A stretch of DNA of 7,243 bases, from positions 1-7,243 of IMG/VR virus record IMGVR_UViG_2548876950_000015. The stretch is one strand, 5' to 3'. The stretch comes from a virus (taxonomy: Duplodnaviria; Heunggongvirae; Uroviricota; Caudoviricetes). A model generated the notes under the pieces. That model did no database searches. It worked only from the letters and a program-made list of their open reading frames with translations, and was not told where the DNA came from. Numbering within the stretch: the stretch's first letter is position 1; each line of letters begins with the position of its first letter. Made by a program: the position numbers and the translations under genes. This document shows positions 1-7,243 of the stretch, piece by piece.

Positions 1-1797
1 TTAGAACTCCTTCACATCTGCGCCAGAAGACACGCTCCAGATCGAAACAGGCGACCCGTTTACACCTATTAACCTTGCTTTCAACCCATTTCCGCTTGCT
101 CTTGGTACGGTTAAATTTGCAGCAGATGGATTCATAGCCCAATCTCCTCCATTTAATATGACACTCATTTCAACTACGCCACCATTATCAATATCTATTA
201 TAGGTGTTTGCACTACCGGGCTTTGTTGATCAATTGGCAGAAAGCCATTGACAATAATAGATGGTCTGAATGATGGGTTTCCCTGAACGCTAACACGAAG
301 TTGCCCACCCTTAACAAATTCTGTTGCACAAGTATTCATGACAATGCAATACGGATTTACAAAATCAAATGCATAGCAAATTGACTCCCCATCCATTGGC
401 GTGCAGTTTTCAGCAGTACAATTGGTCATGGTGGTATATTGCATTCCTGACATTCTAAATGACAACTGGTAACCGTTAACCTGAACAAGGCGCATATCCA
501 TAGAAGTGCCTATTACTTTTATTTGACCATCCCTAAAATCTTCAAATAAAACGCCAGCATATCCTTTCCCTGGATATTGTGGGAAACCGACCATTTCCAT
601 TACGCCAGAGAACGGCACATAAGAGAAGCATCCGATATAAGCACATTCAAAAATTGACTGTCTGATAACTGGTGCTGCTGATTTTCCTAAAAACAGTCCG
701 TAATAATTTCTATAAGAATCTACGTTTTCTTGTGTTAAGCCAAGCCTTCTAAACATGCAGTTTTCAACTCTACCGTTAACACAAAATGAACTCATTGAGT
801 TATCTGTTAGATCCCATTGTTTTGGTATAAAAGCACATAATGCATCCACCTGAAGAATTACTTCTCCATTTTTTGTGAGATCTATTTTGTCATTTGTTGT
901 TTTATAAAAAACTGTCGCTTCAGCCTTTCCCTGTCCTCTAATTCCCATATTGTCATAAATTGGGATTGTTTTTGATGTATTTATGTTTCCAGCAGGAGCC
1001 TCTAGAATGCATTTGTTTGAGCGGGCAAAGTTAGTTGCAAGAGTTATAGCTGTTGCGTTATCTGTGACTCCGTCAGGTTTCACCCCCCAAAATTGCATGT
1101 CGTAAGTGGTAAAATTAATTCGTCTCCATACCATCGTTCCAGTTTCTGGCTTGATTACAATTCCACCATCATCAGCCCACGCCTGAATGTTATCAACAGA
1201 CTCGAAAAAGCCGCCACCAAGGTGGTTTTCAGCATGTGTAGTGCTAGCTGCTGATGCTACGTATACAATCTGCCCTGCCTCCTCCGGAACACAGGAGCGA
1301 AGCTCTGAAAGATTGAGAAAGCGGCCAATAGCGTTAAATCCTGTTTTATCAATTAATGAATCATGTGTAGCTTTCAAGATCTCCAGCTCAATCTTTACGG
1401 TTGTGCCTCCATAACCAACCAGAGATGCGCCATCATGGCCAGAAAGCTCAGCCCTTAACTGATCTGGAGAATATTTCAGTAGATCAGGATAATAGAATTG
1501 TTGTGCACCATACGCATCATACACAGCCATGGAGTGATTCTGTACAGTTACGAACTTGGCAATCTGTCCGTTATATACAGGGTAACCAGCAGCGTTAATG
1601 ATGATTGGTTGCGAAACAGGGACGTGAGAACCATCTTCGTTCTCCACATAAACCTGAATCTGGTTTTCAGGATTTACAGGGTCAGTGTCAATTTTACCAA
1701 TATAAATTTTGCCATTGGCAACCGCTTTAAAAGAACGCGCCATAGTGAAGAGTTGCGAAGGCATCGATACGATCACATTGGCTGTAATGTCTGTCAT
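1..1797 (-). CDS. Tailspike protein: P22 gp9-type head-binding N-terminal domain fused to a divergent receptor-binding domain
   Basis: 598-aa ORF, ATG at 1797-1795 with GGAG about 10 nt upstream, TAA stop at 3-1. The first ~110 residues ([59 protein letters not shown]...KYSPDQ) match, from memory, the conserved head-binding domain of P22 gp9 and the Sf6/HK620 tailspikes. The rest does not resemble the P22 endorhamnosidase body as I recall it. Position after the immI module matches P22 synteny. Confidence 0.88.
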
Positions 1798-1855
1798 TTA
1801 ATTTGCTCCAGATGCAAGGAATCGCCGCAGCATGGCTACGGTGAATTTTGGGCAT

Positions 1856-1880
1856 AAAAAAAAACCCAGCCGAAGCTGGG
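1856..1880 (-). terminator. Rho-independent terminator downstream of the antirepressor-like gene
   Basis: Read on the minus strand: 6-bp GC-rich stem CCCAGC / GCTGGG (1880-1865) with a TTCG loop, followed directly by a run of nine T (plus-strand A-run 1856-1864). Lies about 20 nt after the stop at 1900. Confidence 0.6.
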
Positions 1881-1899
1881 TCGTTGCGTTGGTTATCTG

Positions 1900-2790
1900 T
1901 CAGTAGTTATGTACTGAAGGAGGTAATTCTTTATTCTTAAGTCTCATCCATGCGGAACGATTCGTTGGTCCGTCTGGCTCATTAATATCAACATCTAGTG
2001 TGTGATTGATTAAAACGTCTCTCGCTATATCGATAATACGGGAGAACTCATAACCGCAGTCATGACATCTGCCGGAATAGTTCGATTGAATTTGTTTCAG
2101 CGCCGGATACAATTCGCGGAATAATGCCTGTGAGCGGTTGGCATAATCCCATAACCATACAAGGCTGTTTGCTTCTTTTGCAGAAAGCTCGTTGGTTTTC
2201 TTCTCTTGTTTGCCGATAAATTCACCTTCAAGCACTACCCTGTGGATGTACTCTACGGCCAGCGGGATTTGTTCAATTGAAAGTTCATCAATGCTGTCAA
2301 TACCAAAACGCTGATGAACCATATTGTATGCATCGTCATAGCGAAGTCCTTTCTTTCCTACCAGCATGTTTACTGCATCGCGTAGCGGTGTGCGTTCAGC
2401 TACTGAAGTTTTACCGCCAATACTCTTCCTCTCTTGTGTGGCAGTAACCATTGCGTCATATGCACGGATAACCTTCAGCGCAAATGCTGCGCTAATCCAC
2501 ATGGCGTAGGAGTAAACAAGCTCCTTGCACACGTAGGTTCCACCATATCGACCTTTCTTAGAAAGGACGGGATTCTTATTCTGCATATCCGCAGAATTAA
2601 AAATTTCATTAATCAATTCAATAGTTTCATTTCTACGCATGAAGAAAGCTGGCTGATGTTTTTCCTCCTTTCCAGACGCTACATGAAGGTCATTAAGCGA
2701 GTAACGACCCTCTGAATCCATATGAATCTTGACGTCAGAAATGATGATGCTATTAGTGCAATTTACAGTTGACTTTGCTAAGCTTGACAT
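1900..2790 (-). CDS. KilA-N domain antirepressor-like protein
   Basis: The ORF track extends to 2856, but that start is a GTG overlapping the upstream stop. The ATG at 2790-2788 (MSSLAKS...) has a GAGG 10 nt upstream and puts the KilA-N-like motif ([39 protein letters not shown]) near the N-terminus, as is usual for this family. Family call is from motif recollection only. Position after arc corresponds to ant in P22 immI. Confidence 0.62.
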
Positions 2791-2852
2791 ATCAATAATA
2801 CCTCGTAAGTTTTGTTGATACCGAAGCCCTGACTGTTCCCGCAGTTGGGGCT

Positions 2853-3074
2853 TCACTGTTTTTGTAAGTCACTGTAGCTATAAAGCCACTGACCACTCAT
2901 TTTTGATTTGATTGACTCTACTGAGTCACGGCAAGGAATGATTCCGCCTGACATCATTCTGATCTCCGTAAATTCACCACTCCTTATCGATTCAATGCCA
3001 TCAATGTTAACTAAAGATTTACCTCTACCAAGTGCATTCTCATAGCCAATCTCATCAACCTCAATAAACCTCAT
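2853..3074 (-). CDS. Hypothetical 73-aa protein between arc and the antirepressor-like gene
   Basis: ATG at 3074-3072 overlaps the arc TGA stop (ATGA). A GAGGGG sits about 8 nt upstream. TGA stop at 2855-2853. No family recognised. Confidence 0.4.
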
Positions 3075-3229
3075 GCCGTTATCCCCTCTCTCTTCAGGCT
3101 GTCCAACACTCGCTTGTAAATCTCAGAGTTAACAGATCGCCCGTTCTCTTCAGCTACCTTGCGCACCAAATCCAATACTTCTTTAGGCCACCGCAAATTG
3201 AACTGAGGCATTTTTCTTGCACCTTGCAT
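3071..3229 (-). CDS. arc: Arc-like ribbon-helix-helix transcriptional repressor
   Basis: Manual minus-strand translation gives [52 protein letters not shown] (52 aa), near-identical over the core to P22 Arc as I recall it (MKGMSKMPQFNLRWPREVLDLVRKVAEENGRSVNSEIYQRV...). ATG at 3229-3227 with GGAG 6 nt upstream; TGA at 3073-3071. Missing from the ORF track because it is under 60 aa. An in-frame ATG at 3250 would add 7 residues but has no SD. Confidence 0.85.
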   Translation of the reverse strand: MQGARKMPQFNLRWPKEVLDLVRKVAEENGRSVNSEIYKRVLDSLKREGITA

Positions 3230-3322
3230 ATTCAACTCCATTTCACTCATTGATAGTACCGTACTACTATTGAAAGCGTACTACTACCGTTCTAGCATGT
3301 CAACAAATAAAAGGAGAACGAC
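3230..3322. promoter_or_regulatory. Divergent mnt/arc control region with overlapping candidate promoters and operator-like repeats
   Basis: 93-bp interval between divergent arc and mnt. Inverted repeat TAGTAC-c-GTACTA at 3254-3266 inside GATAGTACCGTACTACTAT (3252-3270), whose flanks resemble the P22 arc operator as I recall it (ATGATAGAAGCACTCTACTAT). Direct repeat CGTACTACTA at 3260-3269 and 3277-3286. Candidate rightward promoter: -35 TTGAAA 3270-3275, -10 TAGCAT 3293-3298. Candidate leftward promoter: -35 TTGACA (complement of 3298-3303), -10 TACGCT (complement of 3275-3280). Confidence 0.5.
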
Positions 3323-3565
3323 GTGGCTAGAAATGATCCACAATTCAACGTAAGAATGCCTGATGAGATAAAACAGCAACTTACGCATATTGCTGCAACA
3401 AATCGCCGCTCGATAAACGCAGAGATTATTTCAGCTATCGAACTATGGATAAAAATTCATAAAGGGCAGCTAATACCTTCAAGTAGTCGAATCCTGACAA
3501 AGTCTGAGCAAGAGGCGTTTGATGTAGCTATTGATGTGTTAAAACGTGTAAGAGATGGAGGATAA
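3323..3565 (+). CDS. mnt: Mnt-like ribbon-helix-helix repressor
   Basis: 80-aa ORF with GTG start at 3323 preceded by AAGGAG (3311-3316). N-terminus MARNDPQFNVRMPDEIKQQL...NRRSINAEI resembles P22 Mnt as I recall it (MARDDPHFNFRMPMEVREKL...NGRSMNSEL). Divergent from arc, as in P22 immI. Confidence 0.85.
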   Translation: MARNDPQFNVRMPDEIKQQLTHIAATNRRSINAEIISAIELWIKIHKGQLIPSSSRILTKSEQEAFDVAIDVLKRVRDGG

Positions 3566-3567
3566 CC

Positions 3568-3801
3568 ATGGAGCAACAACAAGGGTCGCCATTATCATTG
3601 ATTATTATGGTGATTTTTTTCGTTTTTATCTTTTTTATACCTGCGTTAAAAATATCCAAAAAGGCCGGCTTTGACTGGAAGATGGCTGTATGTTTAACAA
3701 TCCCTGGCTTTAACGTGGTGGCGTGGCTCGCGCTTGCGTTCATGGATTGGCCAATTCACAAGTATCTACCAAAAGATGTGAATCGTAAGGATGCAAAATG
3801 A
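3568..3801 (+). CDS. Small two-helix membrane protein, co-transcribed with mnt
   Basis: 77-aa ORF. ATG at 3568 lies 2 nt after the mnt stop, with GGAGG (3557-3561) 6 nt upstream. Hydrophobic stretches LSLIIMVIFFVFIFFIPAL and MAVCLTIPGFNVVAWLALAF, basic C-terminal tail. No family recognised. Confidence 0.6.
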   Translation: MEQQQGSPLSLIIMVIFFVFIFFIPALKISKKAGFDWKMAVCLTIPGFNVVAWLALAFMDWPIHKYLPKDVNRKDAK

Positions 3802-4007
3802 ATAAAAAACAGCTTATTAAGTCAAAAACGTCAAGCAAGGAAGAATTAGAGAAGGAGCTAAACTCCCTGAAATATGCTCTGTGTCTGGTTTACTCAAGAC
3901 TGCCAATGGAAGATAAAAACGCCATTTACAATGAAATGATTAGCAGCCTTGATTTTAACGATAGAGACCTAGCATCCCACCTCAACAGCTTCCGCGTCCC
4001 TGAGTAA
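3798..4007 (+). CDS. Hypothetical 69-aa hydrophilic protein, translationally coupled to the upstream membrane protein
   Basis: ATG at 3798 overlaps the upstream TGA stop (ATGA); AAGGA 6 nt upstream. Charged, helix-prone sequence. TAA stop at 4005-4007. Confidence 0.5.
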   Translation: MNKKQLIKSKTSSKEELEKELNSLKYALCLVYSRLPMEDKNAIYNEMISSLDFNDRDLASHLNSFRVPE

Positions 4008-4167
4008 TTCTGTTGCGGATTTGCTTCTTGCGGTGGTTTAAGCTGGAGAGCTTGGCTTCTGCTTCTGATATTTGCGCATCAAGATCTTTAAGCTCAAGAT
4101 CTGAAAGTCGCTGGTCAAGCAGGGTTTGGTTCAACTCAATGTTGTTCAGGCGTTCTTCTATGGTCAT
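3982..4167 (-). CDS. Hypothetical 61-aa coiled-coil-like protein
   Basis: ATG at 4167-4165 with AAGGAG 5 nt upstream. MTIEERLNNIELNQTLLDQRLSDLELKDLDAQISEAEAKLSSLNHRKK has heptad-like Leu/Ile spacing. The longer track ORF begins at a GTG (4215) with no SD. Its 3' end overlaps the 3' end of the 3798-4007 gene by 26 bp. Confidence 0.4.
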   Translation of the reverse strand: MTIEERLNNIELNQTLLDQRLSDLELKDLDAQISEAEAKLSSLNHRKKQIRNRITQGRGSC

Positions 4168-4308
4168 GATTTCTCCTTGTTGAGGTTGATGTGAAACGAT
4201 TGATTGTATACGCACTCTTTTGTTAGCTAGTAGCTTTGCTTAATCGCAAGATAAAGTTTCTGATTAATCCCTAAAAATCAAAAAATAAAGTTAAAACAGG
4301 TACATGAT
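4168..4308. promoter_or_regulatory. AT-rich divergent intergenic region, presumed promoters for the 3982-4167 (-) and 4309-4512 (+) genes
   Basis: 141-bp AT-rich spacer between two divergently oriented small genes, with several TTG-containing hexamers (for example TTGTTA 4220-4225, TTGCTT 4236-4241). I could not pair a convincing -35/-10 by eye. Confidence 0.3.
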
Positions 4309-4512
4309 ATGGAATGGATCATAGGATTTGTTGTTCTTATCTTCATAGCCAGTATGTTTAAACCAAGAAGTTGCGATATCTGTGGTGCTGGATTTAAGAA
4401 AAAGTACTTCACATGGACTATCGATGGAAAGAAACAGCATCTTTGTCCGTACTGCAACAGTAAAATGGAGAGGCGCAACAGCGATAGGCGCTTTAAGGAT
4501 CGATTTGGTTAA
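4309..4512 (+). CDS. Membrane-anchored zinc-ribbon mini-protein (N-terminal TM helix plus CxxC-x23-CxxC)
   Basis: 67-aa ORF MEWIIGFVVLIFIASMFKPRSCDICGAGFKKKYFTWTIDGKKQHLCPYCNSKMERRNSDRRFKDRFG: one hydrophobic helix, then two Cys pairs (CDIC, CPYC), then an Arg/Lys-rich tail. TAA stop at 4510-4512 is followed about 20 nt later by the terminator hairpin. SD is weak. Confidence 0.55.
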   Translation: MEWIIGFVVLIFIASMFKPRSCDICGAGFKKKYFTWTIDGKKQHLCPYCNSKMERRNSDRRFKDRFG

Positions 4513-4530
4513 CCATTTTATCTCCAACAA

Positions 4531-4560
4531 AAAACCCACCTGACGGTGGGTTTCATTTCT
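4531..4560. terminator. Bidirectional rho-independent terminator between convergent genes
   Basis: Hairpin CCCACC-TGAC-GGTGGG (4535-4550). On the minus strand it is followed by TTTTTTGTTGG (strong, serves the lipoprotein gene ending at 4560). On the plus strand it is followed by TTTCATTTCT (weaker, serves the 4309-4512 gene). Confidence 0.7.
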
Positions 4561-4979
4561 TAATCTTGCTTTGTAGACGGTATAAGGGATGCGTTTGCCT
4601 CTTTTGGCTTCAAGGTATACATCCCACCATTAAATGGATCAACAGCAAGCCAACCAATTAACCCACCAAACACAAGGTTTCCACCAATATACCAACCATT
4701 AGCATTGGCTTTGATTGGCAGGGTAACTGGTTCGTACCCATCCTTTTCCATAGTGATCTGGTAACTCTTTTTGCCAAAATAACTACCATCTGACTTGGCA
4801 AGAGTTACTCCTTGTGGGGTCTTACCTTGCGCAACAATCACGCCTGATTCGTCTTTTACCTTAAAGCTCGCACCGGAAGGATTGCTGTTCACTTGCACAA
4901 GCTGTGTTTCGTCACCAACAATAGTTGCGCACCCAGATAACATGATAGCGCCAGCAACGACGCCAATAATCCTCTTCAT
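4560..4979 (-). CDS. Lipoprotein with a PEGA-like beta-rich domain and a Gly-rich C-terminal segment
   Basis: Signal peptide with lipobox: MKRIIGVVAGAIMLSGC. The track ORF starts 4 codons earlier (ATG 4991, MEID...) with no SD; ATG at 4979 gives the canonical lipoprotein N-terminus. The mature region (NSNPSGASFKVKD...GKTP...ITMEKDGYEP) resembles a PEGA-type fold by motif recollection. C-terminus GWYIGGNLVFGGLIGWLAVDP is Gly-zipper-like. TAA stop at 4562-4560, then the strong terminator. Confidence 0.7.
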   Translation of the reverse strand: MKRIIGVVAGAIMLSGCATIVGDETQLVQVNSNPSGASFKVKDESGVIVAQGKTPQGVTLAKSDGSYFGKKSYQITMEKDGYEPVTLPIKANANGWYIGGNLVFGGLIGWLAVDPFNGGMYTLKPKEANASLIPSTKQD

Positions 4980-5074
4980 ATCAATTTCCATATCTAAAAA
5001 ACCGGAAACATCCTAATGACAAACCATTCAAATGTGAAGCACGAGATAAGATCAATCCATCCGTGGACGACTAA

Positions 5075-7243
5075 TTACTCCTGTGTCATTCCGCTTAGCG
5101 ATGCCACAATCCCAGCCCTCGACAAACGCTGGAACTCTTCGTTTCCTAGTGCATCGCGAATTGCTTTTACGGCGGCCTTATTTGCCATAAATCTGCGTTC
5201 CGCCGCCGCTAATGCGCCATCACTTGCCCCAACCTTAACTGCCTTTGTTGCCTCTTGAACAGCCTTTTCAATAGCGTAACGACCACTTCTGGTTGCGGAT
5301 AATTTCGCTATCGATCCTTTTGCTATCGCATCAATTGCTCCACCAGCAGCGCCACCCACTATTGCTCCAATAACACCTCCTCCAGAGAACCCTGCGATAG
5401 CGCCAGCGGTTGGAAAAGCGCCAGACAATACGCTCTCTAAAACTGGATGAAGGCCATTCTCAAGAGTGCTAATGGCTGGCATAGAGCGCCCTGTTTGTTC
5501 AACATATCGAAGTGGCTTTGTTGCAGCTCTTGCAAGTTCTCCGTATGAACTTGTAATCCTGCCAAGTTCTGGAGAATATCGACTAATTGCCTTCACGTTT
5601 TGTGGGGTAAGAATAGTCGCGATATGCTTAATTCCAGCTCCTTCAGACTTACCTCCGCGTACCCCTTGCGATACCGCATCTTGTAATATTGATGCAATTG
5701 CTGGCGCGCGTTCCGACTCAGGTAGGGCGCTTATTATTTTATGGAACTGACCTGTTCCACTTTTTGCTGAACCCTGTAACGCCTTAGATCCATTAGTTAC
5801 CAACTGATCAGTTGCAAGGTCTCTACCAAACGCTGCTTCAGCCTGTTCTTGTGCTGTAAATCTTGCCTTTGACAGATCATTAGCTTTTTGCCAGTCATCA
5901 AGAAAATCGCCATTTTGAGCCATTATGCGCATATCTTCCGTTGCTGCATCACGAAGCTCAGCCATGCGCCTTGCCGTATTTGCCTCACCAGACCTTATAT
6001 ACTTCTGCTCTGCGTCAGCAAGTTTACTTCGCCATGCCTTCATGGCATCAAACGTGATTCCTTTTTTACCAGTTTTAGCATAAGCAGATGCGAATTGTTT
6101 CATCTCAGGAGTTAGCGGCATGCCAGCCAAAATATCACCCTGAATTGTAGCGTTCAGGTTTGACATTCTGGCCTTTGCGTCAGGCATCGTGGAGCGGACG
6201 CTATCCCATGCGGCCTTTTCTGAATTTTTCATTTTATCAATACTTGCCAAAACCCTTTGTTTTATGGCTGCACTTTTTTCTGATGCAGTTCCTGCTTCAG
6301 CCCCAAACTCATCCAATGCTGAGTTAAATTTCGACTCTATTTCACTGAATGCTTTGGTGTGTGCATCCTGTGTAATTCCGGGCTTTGATGCCAGAATCCC
6401 CTCCGCCTGAGCAAGACCACGACTACCTGATCTCATGCCAGGAGTTAATGCGTTGATATCTATTCCAGCAGTATCTGCTGCTTTTGCTATTTCGTCTGAC
6501 ACATTAGCTGACTGTCTGGCAATAATCTCTCTTCCTGTACCAGACTTTGCCATTTTCGAAACATCAGCAGCGGAATTTATTGCCCCGCCACCAAGAACTT
6601 GAGGTGATTTAGAGGTTAAGATCCTTCCAGCCCCAGAAAGTATCCCCTGAGCACCAATATTGATACCACCGTTAATGGCAGCATTTTGTGCAAAGTCGCC
6701 CTCCTGATTTGCAGCATCAGCAAGAGAACCTGCAATCATGTTTCCTGCGGAACCGATATCTCCAGCGAGCTTTGCTGGCGCTCCAGCAGCTTTTGCCGCT
6801 GTGCCAATTGGCAGGAGATACCCACCAATTGTTTCACCGGCTTGCGCGTAAGGGTCTGTCGGTCGATCGACAGGGCGATAAACATCATCCAAAACCTTGG
6901 GGCCGCCAAGCCCCTGGCTGATTGCATTAATCAGACTTGCGCCACCCTGCAATACGTCAAATGGTATGTTTACCAGACCACGACCAGCCTGTTCTGCAAT
7001 TTGCCCTGCACTTTGACCACCTGTGAGCCAATCACCAGCTTGTTGCATCAATGATGGTTCTTCTTTCTGCTGCTGAGGCGGAGGGTATGCTGCATAAAAC
7101 TGATCTCTTGCTTCAGCCCATTTGTCACCAGCCTTAGGGGCAACAACCTCATCAAAATATTGCGCTTGAGCCTGTGCTTTCTGTTCTTCAGTTAACGCCT
7201 GATACTGTGGAGAAGCGATAACATCTTTCCATGCTTTAGCCAT
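5075..7243 (-). CDS. Phage DNA-ejection / DNA-transfer protein (P22 gp16/gp20-like by position and composition)
   Basis: 722-aa ORF; ATG at the window edge (7243-7241), so the true N-terminus may lie outside the window. TAA stop at 5077-5075. Ala/Gly/Gln-rich, low-complexity and helix-prone, with a Gly-zipper segment ([31 protein letters not shown]) near the C-terminus. It sits on the distal side of the accessory island, where P22 has gene 16. Product assignment is by synteny and composition, not by remembered sequence identity. Confidence 0.6.

Follow-up and report, generated by a model that had tools for sequence, protein, structure and literature searches.

A predicted outer-membrane lipoprotein encoded by a mobile cassette next to gene 16 in a P22-like prophage

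The DNA analysed here (hereafter the window) is a stretch of 7,243 nucleotides from a tailed virus of the Caudoviricetes (IMG/VR record IMGVR_UViG_2548876950_000015, positions 1 to 7,243) and belongs to a P22-like prophage of Escherichia coli. Between a gene-16-type DNA transfer gene and the immunity-I region, the window contains a gene for a small predicted lipoprotein, preceded by a promoter-like element and followed by an intrinsic terminator. Together these form a mobile cassette, or moron, of a kind that is already known: it is a prophage moron orthologous to gene 15 of phage epsilon34. The original prediction, made from the sequence of the window, had proposed the lipoprotein as a candidate superinfection exclusion factor. 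The features of the cassette and its upstream neighbour are the following.

The lipoprotein gene and its cassette

4527 to 5039, minus strand: whole mobile cassette (513 bp) of promoter, lipoprotein gene and terminator, delimited by blastn against 80 IMG/VR loci
5010 to 5038, minus strand: sigma-70-type promoter-like element from a consensus scan, with -35 TTCACA (5038-5033), a 17-nt spacer and -10 TAGGAT (5015-5010)
4560 to 4979, minus strand: lipoprotein gene, 139 codons plus the stop codon (4560-4562)
4929 to 4979, minus strand: signal peptide (residues 1-16) and lipobox L14-S15-G16-C17 with Ala at +2, matching PROSITE PS51257
4701 to 4907, minus strand: beta-sandwich domain (residues 25-93), PEGA/CnaB/transthyretin-like, with the conserved loop K62-S-D-G-S-Y-F-G69; confident in AlphaFold2
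4641 to 4697, minus strand: Gly-rich hydrophobic helix (residues 95-113, GWYIGGNLVFGGLIGWLAV) with a glycine face and the invariant Asn101, from alignment and helical wheel
4587 to 4643, minus strand: V-D-P-x-x-G-x-M-Y motif and C-terminal beta-strands (residues 113-131), from alignment and AlphaFold2
4526 to 4553, minus strand: intrinsic terminator, a 10-bp stem followed by UUUUUUGUU, with a U6GUU tract (-16.4 kcal/mol, z -3.4)
5075 to 7243, minus strand: gene-16-type DNA transfer (ejection) protein (phrog_770, E 4e-218), named 'DNA transfer protein' by the Prokaryotic Genome Annotation Pipeline (PGAP)

The open reading frame (ORF) first proposed for the lipoprotein, 143 amino acids at 4560-4991 on the minus strand, is present, and its stop side holds. 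The start does not: the ATG at 4991 is not conserved, and the ATG at 4979, giving 139 amino acids, is the conserved start, since the PGAP gene call (420 nt, 139 codons), the alignment to phrog_6823 (beginning at residue 5) and the loci of Gally type agree on it. In the latter, named after Gally, a P22-like prophage of the adherent-invasive E. coli (AIEC) strain LF82, the upstream ATG is missing and a GGAAAG Shine-Dalgarno sequence is kept six bases before the shared ATG. As judged from its relatives and alleles, the lipoprotein gene is real and under strong purifying selection and no chance ORF, because 726 homologues were found and the median ratio of nonsynonymous to synonymous substitution rates (dN/dS) is 0.037 among 49 nucleotide alleles of the P22-type gene (dS up to 0.41). 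It lies 95 nt downstream of the gene-16 DNA transfer gene and, as had been described, on the same strand; the latter gene is the last late gene ahead of the accessory region.

The edges of the cassette emerged from a blastn comparison of the window with 80 lipoprotein-encoding IMG/VR contigs. Upstream, homology ends at 5039 in 49 loci and at 5023 in 16 loci; downstream, it ends at 4527 or 4529 in 73 of the 80, and the flanks beyond both edges are unrelated. Position 5039 is the base preceding the -35 hexamer, and the terminator U-tract ends at 4527. The 16 loci with a break at 5023 are those of Gally type. Their spacer is unrelated, yet TTCACG-17-TAAGAT is found 30 nt from the start codon, as in the window. 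The promoter-like element lies in the spacer (4992-5074) in which promoter mapping had been suggested; it was identified by sequence scan, and the transcription start near 5003 is a prediction. A sigma-E-type promoter was considered for the window allele and rejected by eye.

The pattern CTTCACR-N17-TANGNT-NTTTC, for which the chance expectation in the window is none, occurs once per cassette and otherwise, among 188 loci, only upstream of HK97 gene 15. The moron of HK97 gene 15 (locus L188, 1850-1884) and the window (5005-5039) have in common the promoter core GCTTCACAT, a 17-nt spacer, a -10 hexamer TACGCT or TAGGAT, and (C/G)TTTCC. The shared core is found nowhere else in ~1.7 Mb of loci, although the pattern was partly drawn from HK97 and the statistics are only indicative. 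The similarity suggests a portable promoter module common to unrelated morons.

In form the terminator is bidirectional, and the convergent ORF 4309-4512 ends at it too. An equivalent terminator is found directly 3' of the gene in epsilon34 (where the record annotates it as a Rho-independent terminator), Gally, vB_EcoP-720R6, lambdoid prophages of E. coli and Proteus, and a prophage remnant. The gene had been described as flanked by terminators, which is correct for the strong terminator at its 3' side; a fold check of 4992-5080 yielded no upstream terminator (z +1.2), and the promoter-like element is found there instead.

Expression is documented for the orthologue of Gally, GALLYPH_14, which is 99.3% identical to the lipoprotein of the window. 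Misson et al. (PMC9928086) re-analysed the RNA-seq set GSE154648, with bacteria in lysogeny broth (LB), in Dulbecco's modified Eagle's medium (DMEM) and in macrophages, and their S1 Table gives the following values for GALLYPH_14 as log2(fpkm+5), where fpkm denotes fragments per kilobase per million, in two replicates.

LB overnight: 6.2 / 4.8
DMEM 1 h: 9.8 / 10.2
DMEM 6 h: 10.5 / 10.2
Macrophages 1 h: 11.0 / 11.0
Macrophages 6 h: 9.4 / 9.5

For comparison, the same table lists 3.6-4.15 for gene 16 directly upstream, 2.3-4.5 for other late genes except the capsid and adaptor genes, and 8.9-12.0 for the C2 repressor. The GALLYPH_14 transcript is therefore roughly 60-130 times as abundant as that of the silent gene 16, and it ranks second among the Gally genes in DMEM and in macrophages at 1 h. 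Its level comes close to that of the C2 repressor, which stands at 10.5-12.0 against 9.8-10.5 for GALLYPH_14 in DMEM and 11.0 in macrophages at 1 h. Relative to stationary LB it is 14-fold up in macrophages at 6 h (log2 fold change 3.84, q 1.4e-31). The cassette is an autonomous unit expressed from the prophage, the direct evidence coming from the Gally promoter variant. The earlier question of whether the gene is expressed late, from its own promoter, or both is largely answered for the prophage state, the late genes being silent. Read-through from the late promoter during lytic growth presumably occurs as well, on account of the orientation of the gene, the Q-type antiterminator of the prophage and the precedent of the P22 ant moron. 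The cassette is a moron in the sense of Juhala and Hendrix: it is present in some phages and absent from others, it occupies an intergenic slot, and it has its own promoter, expression from the prophage (that of the Gally orthologue rather than of the exact allele of the window) and its own terminator.

Two further observations concern Gally. In the LF82 data (coordinates 1,032,854-1,037,235, S1 Table of PMC9928086), transcription of the tailspike gene downstream of the cassette rises, perhaps because transcripts run past the cassette terminator or because Pant is de-repressed. The gene that separates gene 16 from the cassette, GALLYPH_13 (locus L022, 2881-3396, minus strand; also in L023 and ~16 IMG/VR loci), is divergent from the cassette and encodes a lipoprotein too (MKKSLLIIPLLLAGC..., 171 amino acids). 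It is expressed from the LF82 prophage, with log2 values of 6.0-6.3 in LB and 10.3 in macrophages at 1 h. Its epsilon34 counterpart, the hkcB-like gene 14, encodes a transmembrane segment and a coiled coil instead.

The predicted protein and its cellular relatives

The N-terminus of the lipoprotein consists of MKR, a hydrophobic core and L14-S15-G16-C17, and the stretch VVAGAIMLSG with the C17 that follows it fits the PROSITE PS51257 lipobox rule. C17 is invariant in 60 of 60 homologues, A18 is likewise invariant, and G16 is at least 90% conserved; Pfam LPAM_1 is matched by 9 of the 60. The lipobox signal peptide that had been recognised in the window is hence canonical, and the precursor has the signal peptide and lipobox of a bacterial lipoprotein, as a predicted substrate of Lgt, LspA and Lnt. 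According to the Lol rule of E. coli, Ala at position +2 leads to sorting to the outer membrane, which we infer as the probable destination. No transmembrane segment other than the signal peptide is present in the protein.

A structure predicted by AlphaFold2 from the alignment of homologues has a mean predicted local distance difference test score (pLDDT) of 79.8. The beta-rich, PEGA-like body of the original prediction is borne out by the confident sandwich over residues 25-93, while the Pfam PEGA model (PF08308) scores 17.5 bits against a gathering threshold of 20.8 and hence stays below the cut-off; 18 of 60 homologues match it weakly. In the helix that follows, G95, W96, Y97, N101 and G109 are invariant among the 60 homologues, and on a helical wheel G95, G99, G105, G106 and G109 share a 120-degree arc, placing five glycines beside Asn101. 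With a Kyte-Doolittle mean of 1.28 and a Hessa sum of ~ +4 kcal/mol, the hydrophobicity of the predicted helix falls short of what a Sec stop-transfer segment or a stall in the inner membrane would require. The Gly-zipper families of Pfam (Rick_17kDa_Anti/SlyB, TraT, Gly-zipper_Omp) gave no match at E up to 1 with the query and up to 0.1 with the 60 homologues. A Gly-zipper had been assigned to the C-terminus. The glycine-face helix is there, though not at the C-terminal end, as 26 more residues follow it, including the VDPxxGxMY hairpin. In this last part D114, P115, G118, M120 and P125 are invariant (60 homologues), and the strands 121-124 and 127-131 are predicted with a pLDDT of ~91. The NCBIfam model LEPBI_I2678, a Leptospira family, weakly matches the C-terminal half (E 5.8e-5). 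Overall, scans of Pfam, NCBIfam, PHROGs and PADLOC yielded only the sub-threshold PEGA match, the weak match to the Leptospira family and an unannotated PHROG. In one subfamily of homologues (P0106-P0120, 162-186 amino acids), the VDPxxGxMY hairpin is followed by an additional conserved stretch at the C-terminus (...NN..DGSISIVLLQDVP..L...M..I).

The protein belongs to a large family. A profile search recovered 5578 clusters at E up to 0.001 and 2074 at E up to 1e-10, and a species-level scan with one genome per species found a relative in 182 species. Many relatives occupy fixed chromosomal sites: in ~19 Erwiniaceae the order is mmuP-mmuM-[gene]-speG, near nrdHIEF; in Photorhabdus the homologue lies between rimJ and murJ, in Kluyvera after mppA, and in Lonsdalea and the Pasteurellaceae at a fixed site of their own each. 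Further homologues are found in Halomonas, Shewanella, Nitrosomonas, Zoogloea and a metagenome-assembled genome of Nitrospinota. Overall, the chromosomal neighbours comprise mmuP/mmuM, speG, nrdHIEF, rimJ, murJ, sap, mppA, a small beta-barrel outer-membrane protein and other lipoproteins.

In a neighbour-joining tree, the phage-borne enterobacterial copies, P22-like as well as lambdoid, constitute one clade that is nested among chromosomal enterobacterial lineages. Because the phage copies form this single nested clade, the tree suggests one capture followed by movement between phage types. Among positions that are at least 85% conserved in both groups, none differs between the phage clade and the 67 other sequences; positions 37 and 44 are conserved elsewhere and relaxed in the phage clade. 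That the lipoprotein derives from a cellular envelope lipoprotein, and still resembles one, is well supported.

Distribution among phages and possible roles

Among 50,697 phage records, the cassette is present in three distinct isolates, namely epsilon34, Gally and vB_EcoP-720R6; a tblastn search of isolated phages also gave a weak match in one Caulobacter phage. The orthologues epsilon34 gene 15 (ACF16641.1) and Gally GALLYPH_14, with PHROG 6823, are 98.6-99.3% identical to the protein of the window, and all are annotated as hypothetical; WP_024236923.1 is a further orthologue. In epsilon34 and Gally, cassette and terminator are those of the window and likewise occupy the interval from gene 16 to mnt. 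They differ in an additional opposite-strand gene that separates gene 16 from the cassette, and the Gally type also in its -35 hexamer and spacer. P22 and most P22-like phages lack the gene. Of the 80 IMG/VR contigs, 74 have the cassette in the gene 16 to mnt interval of a P22-like phage; the gene-16 alleles that accompany it are of three very different kinds, an opposite-strand gene intervenes in some loci and not in others, and the lipoprotein is 98-99% identical throughout. Of 5426 complete E. coli genomes, 132 (~2.4%) carry the cassette, always on the chromosome and only in prophage contexts, among them AIEC LF82 and O111:H8.

Relatives of 66-80% identity reside in prophages of lambdoid siphophages, in E. 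coli, Proteus and further enterobacteria; they are encoded on the late strand, with a terminator of their own behind them. They use four slots of the lambdoid tail operon (T/H, H/M, K/I and I/J), so that, with the P22-like site, the cassette occupies five different slots of two phage types. The E. coli lambdoid carriers are HK97-like, and since their identity to HK97 is 58-82% in the G, T, tube and tape-measure genes, the T/H copy occupies the orthologous slot of HK97 gene 15. HK97 itself has morons without an assigned function in the K/I and I/J slots; for this reason the occupied slots are general moron slots, none of them reserved for exclusion genes. The HK97-like E. coli prophages with the cassette in the T/H slot (L002, 10261-11424; L004-L007) also harbor a porin gene (Porin_1/Porin_4, 357-387 amino acids) between M and L. 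In one Proteus prophage (L009, 6001-6411), the lipoprotein gene adjoins a cI-like repressor (HTH_3 and Peptidase_S24) and is not directly upstream of the tape-measure gene; the cassette is thus also found beside a lysogeny module.

Several known prophage and envelope proteins invite comparison. HK97 gene 15, the first described moron, is a superinfection exclusion gene whose cellular relative YebO excludes no phage. It resembles the cassette in being a promoter-gene-terminator moron that is expressed from the prophage and derived from a cellular envelope-protein family, and in the T/H slot and the promoter core CTTCACR-N17-TANGNT-NTTTC. The proteins, however, are unrelated: gp15 is a YebO-like single-pass inner-membrane protein of 62 amino acids and no lipoprotein, its C-terminus has diverged from YebO whereas the lipoprotein of the window keeps all family-invariant residues, and exclusion has been demonstrated for gp15 alone of the two. 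A tblastn search found no gp15 in the HK97-like loci that hold the lipoprotein in the gene-15 slot. SieA of P22 has in common with the lipoprotein its expression from the prophage and its location in the accessory interval beside gene 16 (PMC10883804); it is a multi-pass inner-membrane protein with an FxRYPxEAxxFNK motif, encoded on the strand opposite to gene 16, whereas the lipoprotein is secreted and encoded on the late strand. Searches by tblastn for types A (P22) and B (HS1), the two types covered, found no sieA in the window or in any cassette locus.

To our knowledge, no large cellular family stands behind T5 Llp and Cor of phi80 and N15. These are likewise small phage lipoproteins with a known or predicted outer-membrane location, encoded near host-entry genes. 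They act on FhuA in phage exclusion and have no sequence or fold match to the lipoprotein of the window. The NCBIfam Cor model NF047972 reaches 12.2 bits against a cut-off of 31 and covers residues 1-30, that is, the signal peptide, only; no PADLOC-DB model matched at E up to 1, and library, tblastn and fold-match searches revealed no similarity to Llp, Cor, SieA or gp15. Lambda Bor/Iss and E. coli SlyB correspond to the lipoprotein in functional class, being lipoproteins added to or induced in the envelope. SlyB combines a lipid anchor, a glycine-zipper helix and a beta-sandwich, and shields outer-membrane proteins; its domain order is unlike that of the lipoprotein described here. The Pfam models Lambda_Bor, Rick_17kDa_Anti (SlyB) and TraT gave no match at E up to 1, and neither Bor nor SlyB is among the fold matches.

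On the whole, we consider it probable that the interval 4527-5039 is a self-contained moron carrying a captured cellular lipoprotein gene that is expressed from the prophage and converts the envelope of the lysogen; lysogenic conversion of the envelope by the predicted lipoprotein is well supported. The gene would have been taken from the large chromosomal lipoprotein family of proteobacteria, the resulting phage lineage would move between podophages and siphophages, and in the window the moron would have entered a P22-like E. coli prophage at a site that separates gene 16 from the immunity-I region. The dormant prophage would transcribe the gene with the late genes off, and the lytic phase would add late read-through. 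The precursor would be cleaved and lipidated at Cys17 and sorted to the outer membrane, and the mature protein would have four parts: the invariant tether CATIVG, the PEGA/CnaB-like sandwich, the glycine-zipper helix with its Asn, and the VDPxxGxMY hairpin. The helix would suit helix-helix packing, oligomerisation or shallow insertion into the outer membrane. In a lysogen, the lipoprotein would do the job of the cellular family, with a conserved part of the outer membrane or periplasm as its target instead of any one phage protein, and E. coli, which has no non-prophage chromosomal copy, would gain an envelope property that it otherwise lacks. The lipoprotein most likely acts via the native activity of the family, because the phage copies keep the family-invariant residues under strong constraint; an old cellular family with its invariant residues retained points to an envelope activity over a phage-specific one.

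Several observations weigh against this interpretation. No conserved operon partner of the chromosomal homologues was found, and their neighbours differ by lineage and indicate no pathway. Family libraries, the PDB and the literature on the epsilon34 lipoprotein and on PEGA-domain lipoproteins yielded no characterised homologue. Residues 95-112 of the helix are predicted by AlphaFold2 with low confidence (pLDDT ~58), and its membrane role is a suggestion. The cassette has a guanine-cytosine (GC) content of ~43% (0.43-0.44 for the gene), little lower than the 0.45-0.52 of gene 16, and the whole accessory region is GC-poor. The expression data are those of the Gally variant, whose -35 hexamer and spacer differ from those of the window. 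In addition, Gally is described as 'devoid of any moron' in PMC9928086, by a criterion of five-fold above background in overnight LB, a condition in which GALLYPH_14 reaches 3.3-fold; we note that the table of the same paper corrects this statement.

Superinfection exclusion is a specific version of the envelope-converting moron and does not contradict it. By analogy with known systems, the lipoprotein, lying under the outer membrane, might mask or lock an outer-membrane receptor, or obstruct the conduit, formed by ejection or tape-measure proteins, through which DNA crosses the periplasm, and so keep the DNA of incoming phages out. We regard this as possible, albeit doubtful. It would fit the expression of the Gally copy from the prophage and the mode of action of the outer-membrane lipoproteins Llp and Cor (PMC3594210). 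It would also fit the location, as the P22-like site is the interval from gene 16 to gene 9 that elsewhere holds sieA (PMC10883804) and the T/H copy replaces the exclusion gene 15 in HK97-like prophages. Moreover, sieA of type A or B occurs in 22 of 66 P22-like phages and never together with the cassette in the cassette-bearing P22-like loci (74 viral loci, the window, epsilon34, Gally and 720R6). However, this exclusivity may reflect competition for a slot among related prophages, and the positional argument is weaker than it looks, because the T/H, K/I, I/J and 16-to-9 slots are generic and also hold genes of other or unassigned function. The lipoprotein has no sequence or fold kinship to the known exclusion proteins, nor a PADLOC match; it is almost unchanged beside very different gene-16 alleles; and it is under purifying, not diversifying, selection. 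Its cellular homologues reside at stable sites without defence genes, and the phage copies are undiverged at the family-conserved positions, in contrast to gp15, which has diverged from YebO.

Another specific version of the same interpretation is that the lipoprotein stabilises or remodels the outer membrane under stress unrelated to phages, and thereby helps lysogens in their niche, for example in macrophages, in analogy to lambda Bor (serum resistance) and SlyB. We propose this tentatively, and consider it and exclusion about equal; the sequence evidence does not favour exclusion. A role in envelope fitness would agree with the strongly conserved cellular family, its fixed chromosomal sites free of defence neighbours and the family-invariant residues kept by the phage copies. 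The lipid anchor, the beta-sandwich and a glycine-face helix with a buried Asn suit oligomerisation in or on a membrane, the cassette is found in the pathogenic lineages AIEC LF82 and O111:H8, and the Gally copy is induced in macrophages at 6 h relative to stationary LB. Yet GALLYPH_14 is already high in DMEM, as the authors of PMC9928086 remark for the Bor moron of prophage Perceval, and the difference between LB overnight and DMEM may be one of growth phase only. Furthermore, deletion of the whole Gally prophage left survival in macrophages unreduced (PMC9928086), and the text and supplement of a preprint on a CRISPR interference gut screen of LF82 make no mention of GALLYPH_14. The missing matches to Bor, SlyB, TraT and other Gly-zipper families, and the absence of SlyB from the fold matches, likewise argue against this role. 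We consider it unlikely, though conceivable, that the lipoprotein is the founding phage-borne member of its family and that the native activity of the family on a conserved envelope machine would itself block the DNA of podophages and siphophages, which would be a third alternative to SieA and gp15 in the same slots, with a new mechanism, and would perhaps also serve the survival of AIEC and enterohaemorrhagic E. coli.

A second role that has been proposed for T5 Llp is to spare the DNA of progeny virions. In a similar manner, the lipoprotein could be a helper in the lytic cycle that is made from the late operon and keeps progeny from losing DNA to lysing cells and debris, or that assists disruption of the outer membrane. 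The gene lies on the late strand within the late transcription unit between genes 16 and 9, and a Q-type antiterminator should, by inference from the biology of P22, read through the cassette terminator. Against this stand the high transcription with silent late genes, the absence of the gene from most P22-like phages, a complete lysis cassette elsewhere in the prophage and the lack of o-spanin features, and we consider such a role very unlikely. The specific assignment as an o-spanin was rejected on account of this complete lysis cassette and the lack of an Rz partner. Nor is the lipoprotein plausible as a structural or assembly component of the P22-like virion, for which only its position beside the ejection-protein genes speaks: it is a secreted lipoprotein, and the authors of the epsilon34 study class gene 15 as non-morphogenetic, within an 'ant moron'. 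Its absence from P22 and most P22-like phages and its occurrence in siphophage prophages and at non-phage chromosomal sites effectively refute this reading. Homology to a conserved virion or assembly component, which the original prediction had named as one of two observations that would count against exclusion, was accordingly not found.

Should exclusion prove true, the cassette would encode an exclusion lipoprotein without kinship to Llp and Cor that can stand in for SieA and gp15 and acts from the side of the outer membrane, with a bearing on phage therapy and on the partitioning of hosts by prophages. Should the role in envelope fitness prove true, the factor is one that ~2.4% of complete E. 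coli genomes carry in a prophage, AIEC LF82 and O111:H8 among them, and that is strongly transcribed in macrophages. Either way, the cassette would provide initial access to a bacterial lipoprotein family with thousands of uncharacterised members; as a candidate for experiments on exclusion it is a good one, though no surprise.

Neighbouring genes in the window

The remainder of the window, downstream of the cassette, contains the following features.

1 to 1797: tailspike gene
1900 to 2856: ant (immunity-I)
2792 to 2857, plus strand: sar antisense RNA (Rfam RF00262, 61.7 bits, E 2.9e-11), overlapping the start of ant
2853 to 3074: extra ORF of 73 amino acids between arc and ant (phrog_11805)
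3071 to 3250: arc (immunity-I)
3323 to 3565, plus strand: mnt (immunity-I)
3568 to 3801, plus strand: protein of 77 amino acids with two hydrophobic segments (phrog_32536), its ATG at 3568 right after the end of mnt at 3565
3798 to 4007, plus strand: protein of 69 amino acids (phrog_16466), with an ATGA overlap (3798-3801) with the preceding ORF
4309 to 4512, plus strand: ORF of 67 amino acids, with a hydrophobic segment at the N-terminus and a C4 zinc-ribbon motif; no PHROG, and in Pfam only weak matches to zinc ribbons

Since sar is present alongside mnt, arc and ant, the immunity-I region is a complete one of P22 type. The two ORFs at 3568-3801 and 3798-4007 would be co-transcribed with mnt in a lysogen, and for this reason the membrane protein of 77 amino acids is another candidate for a prophage-expressed envelope or exclusion factor. 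The ORF at 4309-4512 is convergent with the lipoprotein gene, ends at the same hairpin and has no PGAP annotation in the source genome. In that genome, an acyltransferase-family gene follows the tailspike gene (L024, 25370-26479; 26909 onward) and is probably an O-antigen-modifying conversion gene. The source prophage is integrated beside torT/torS, at the same site as Gally and HK022.

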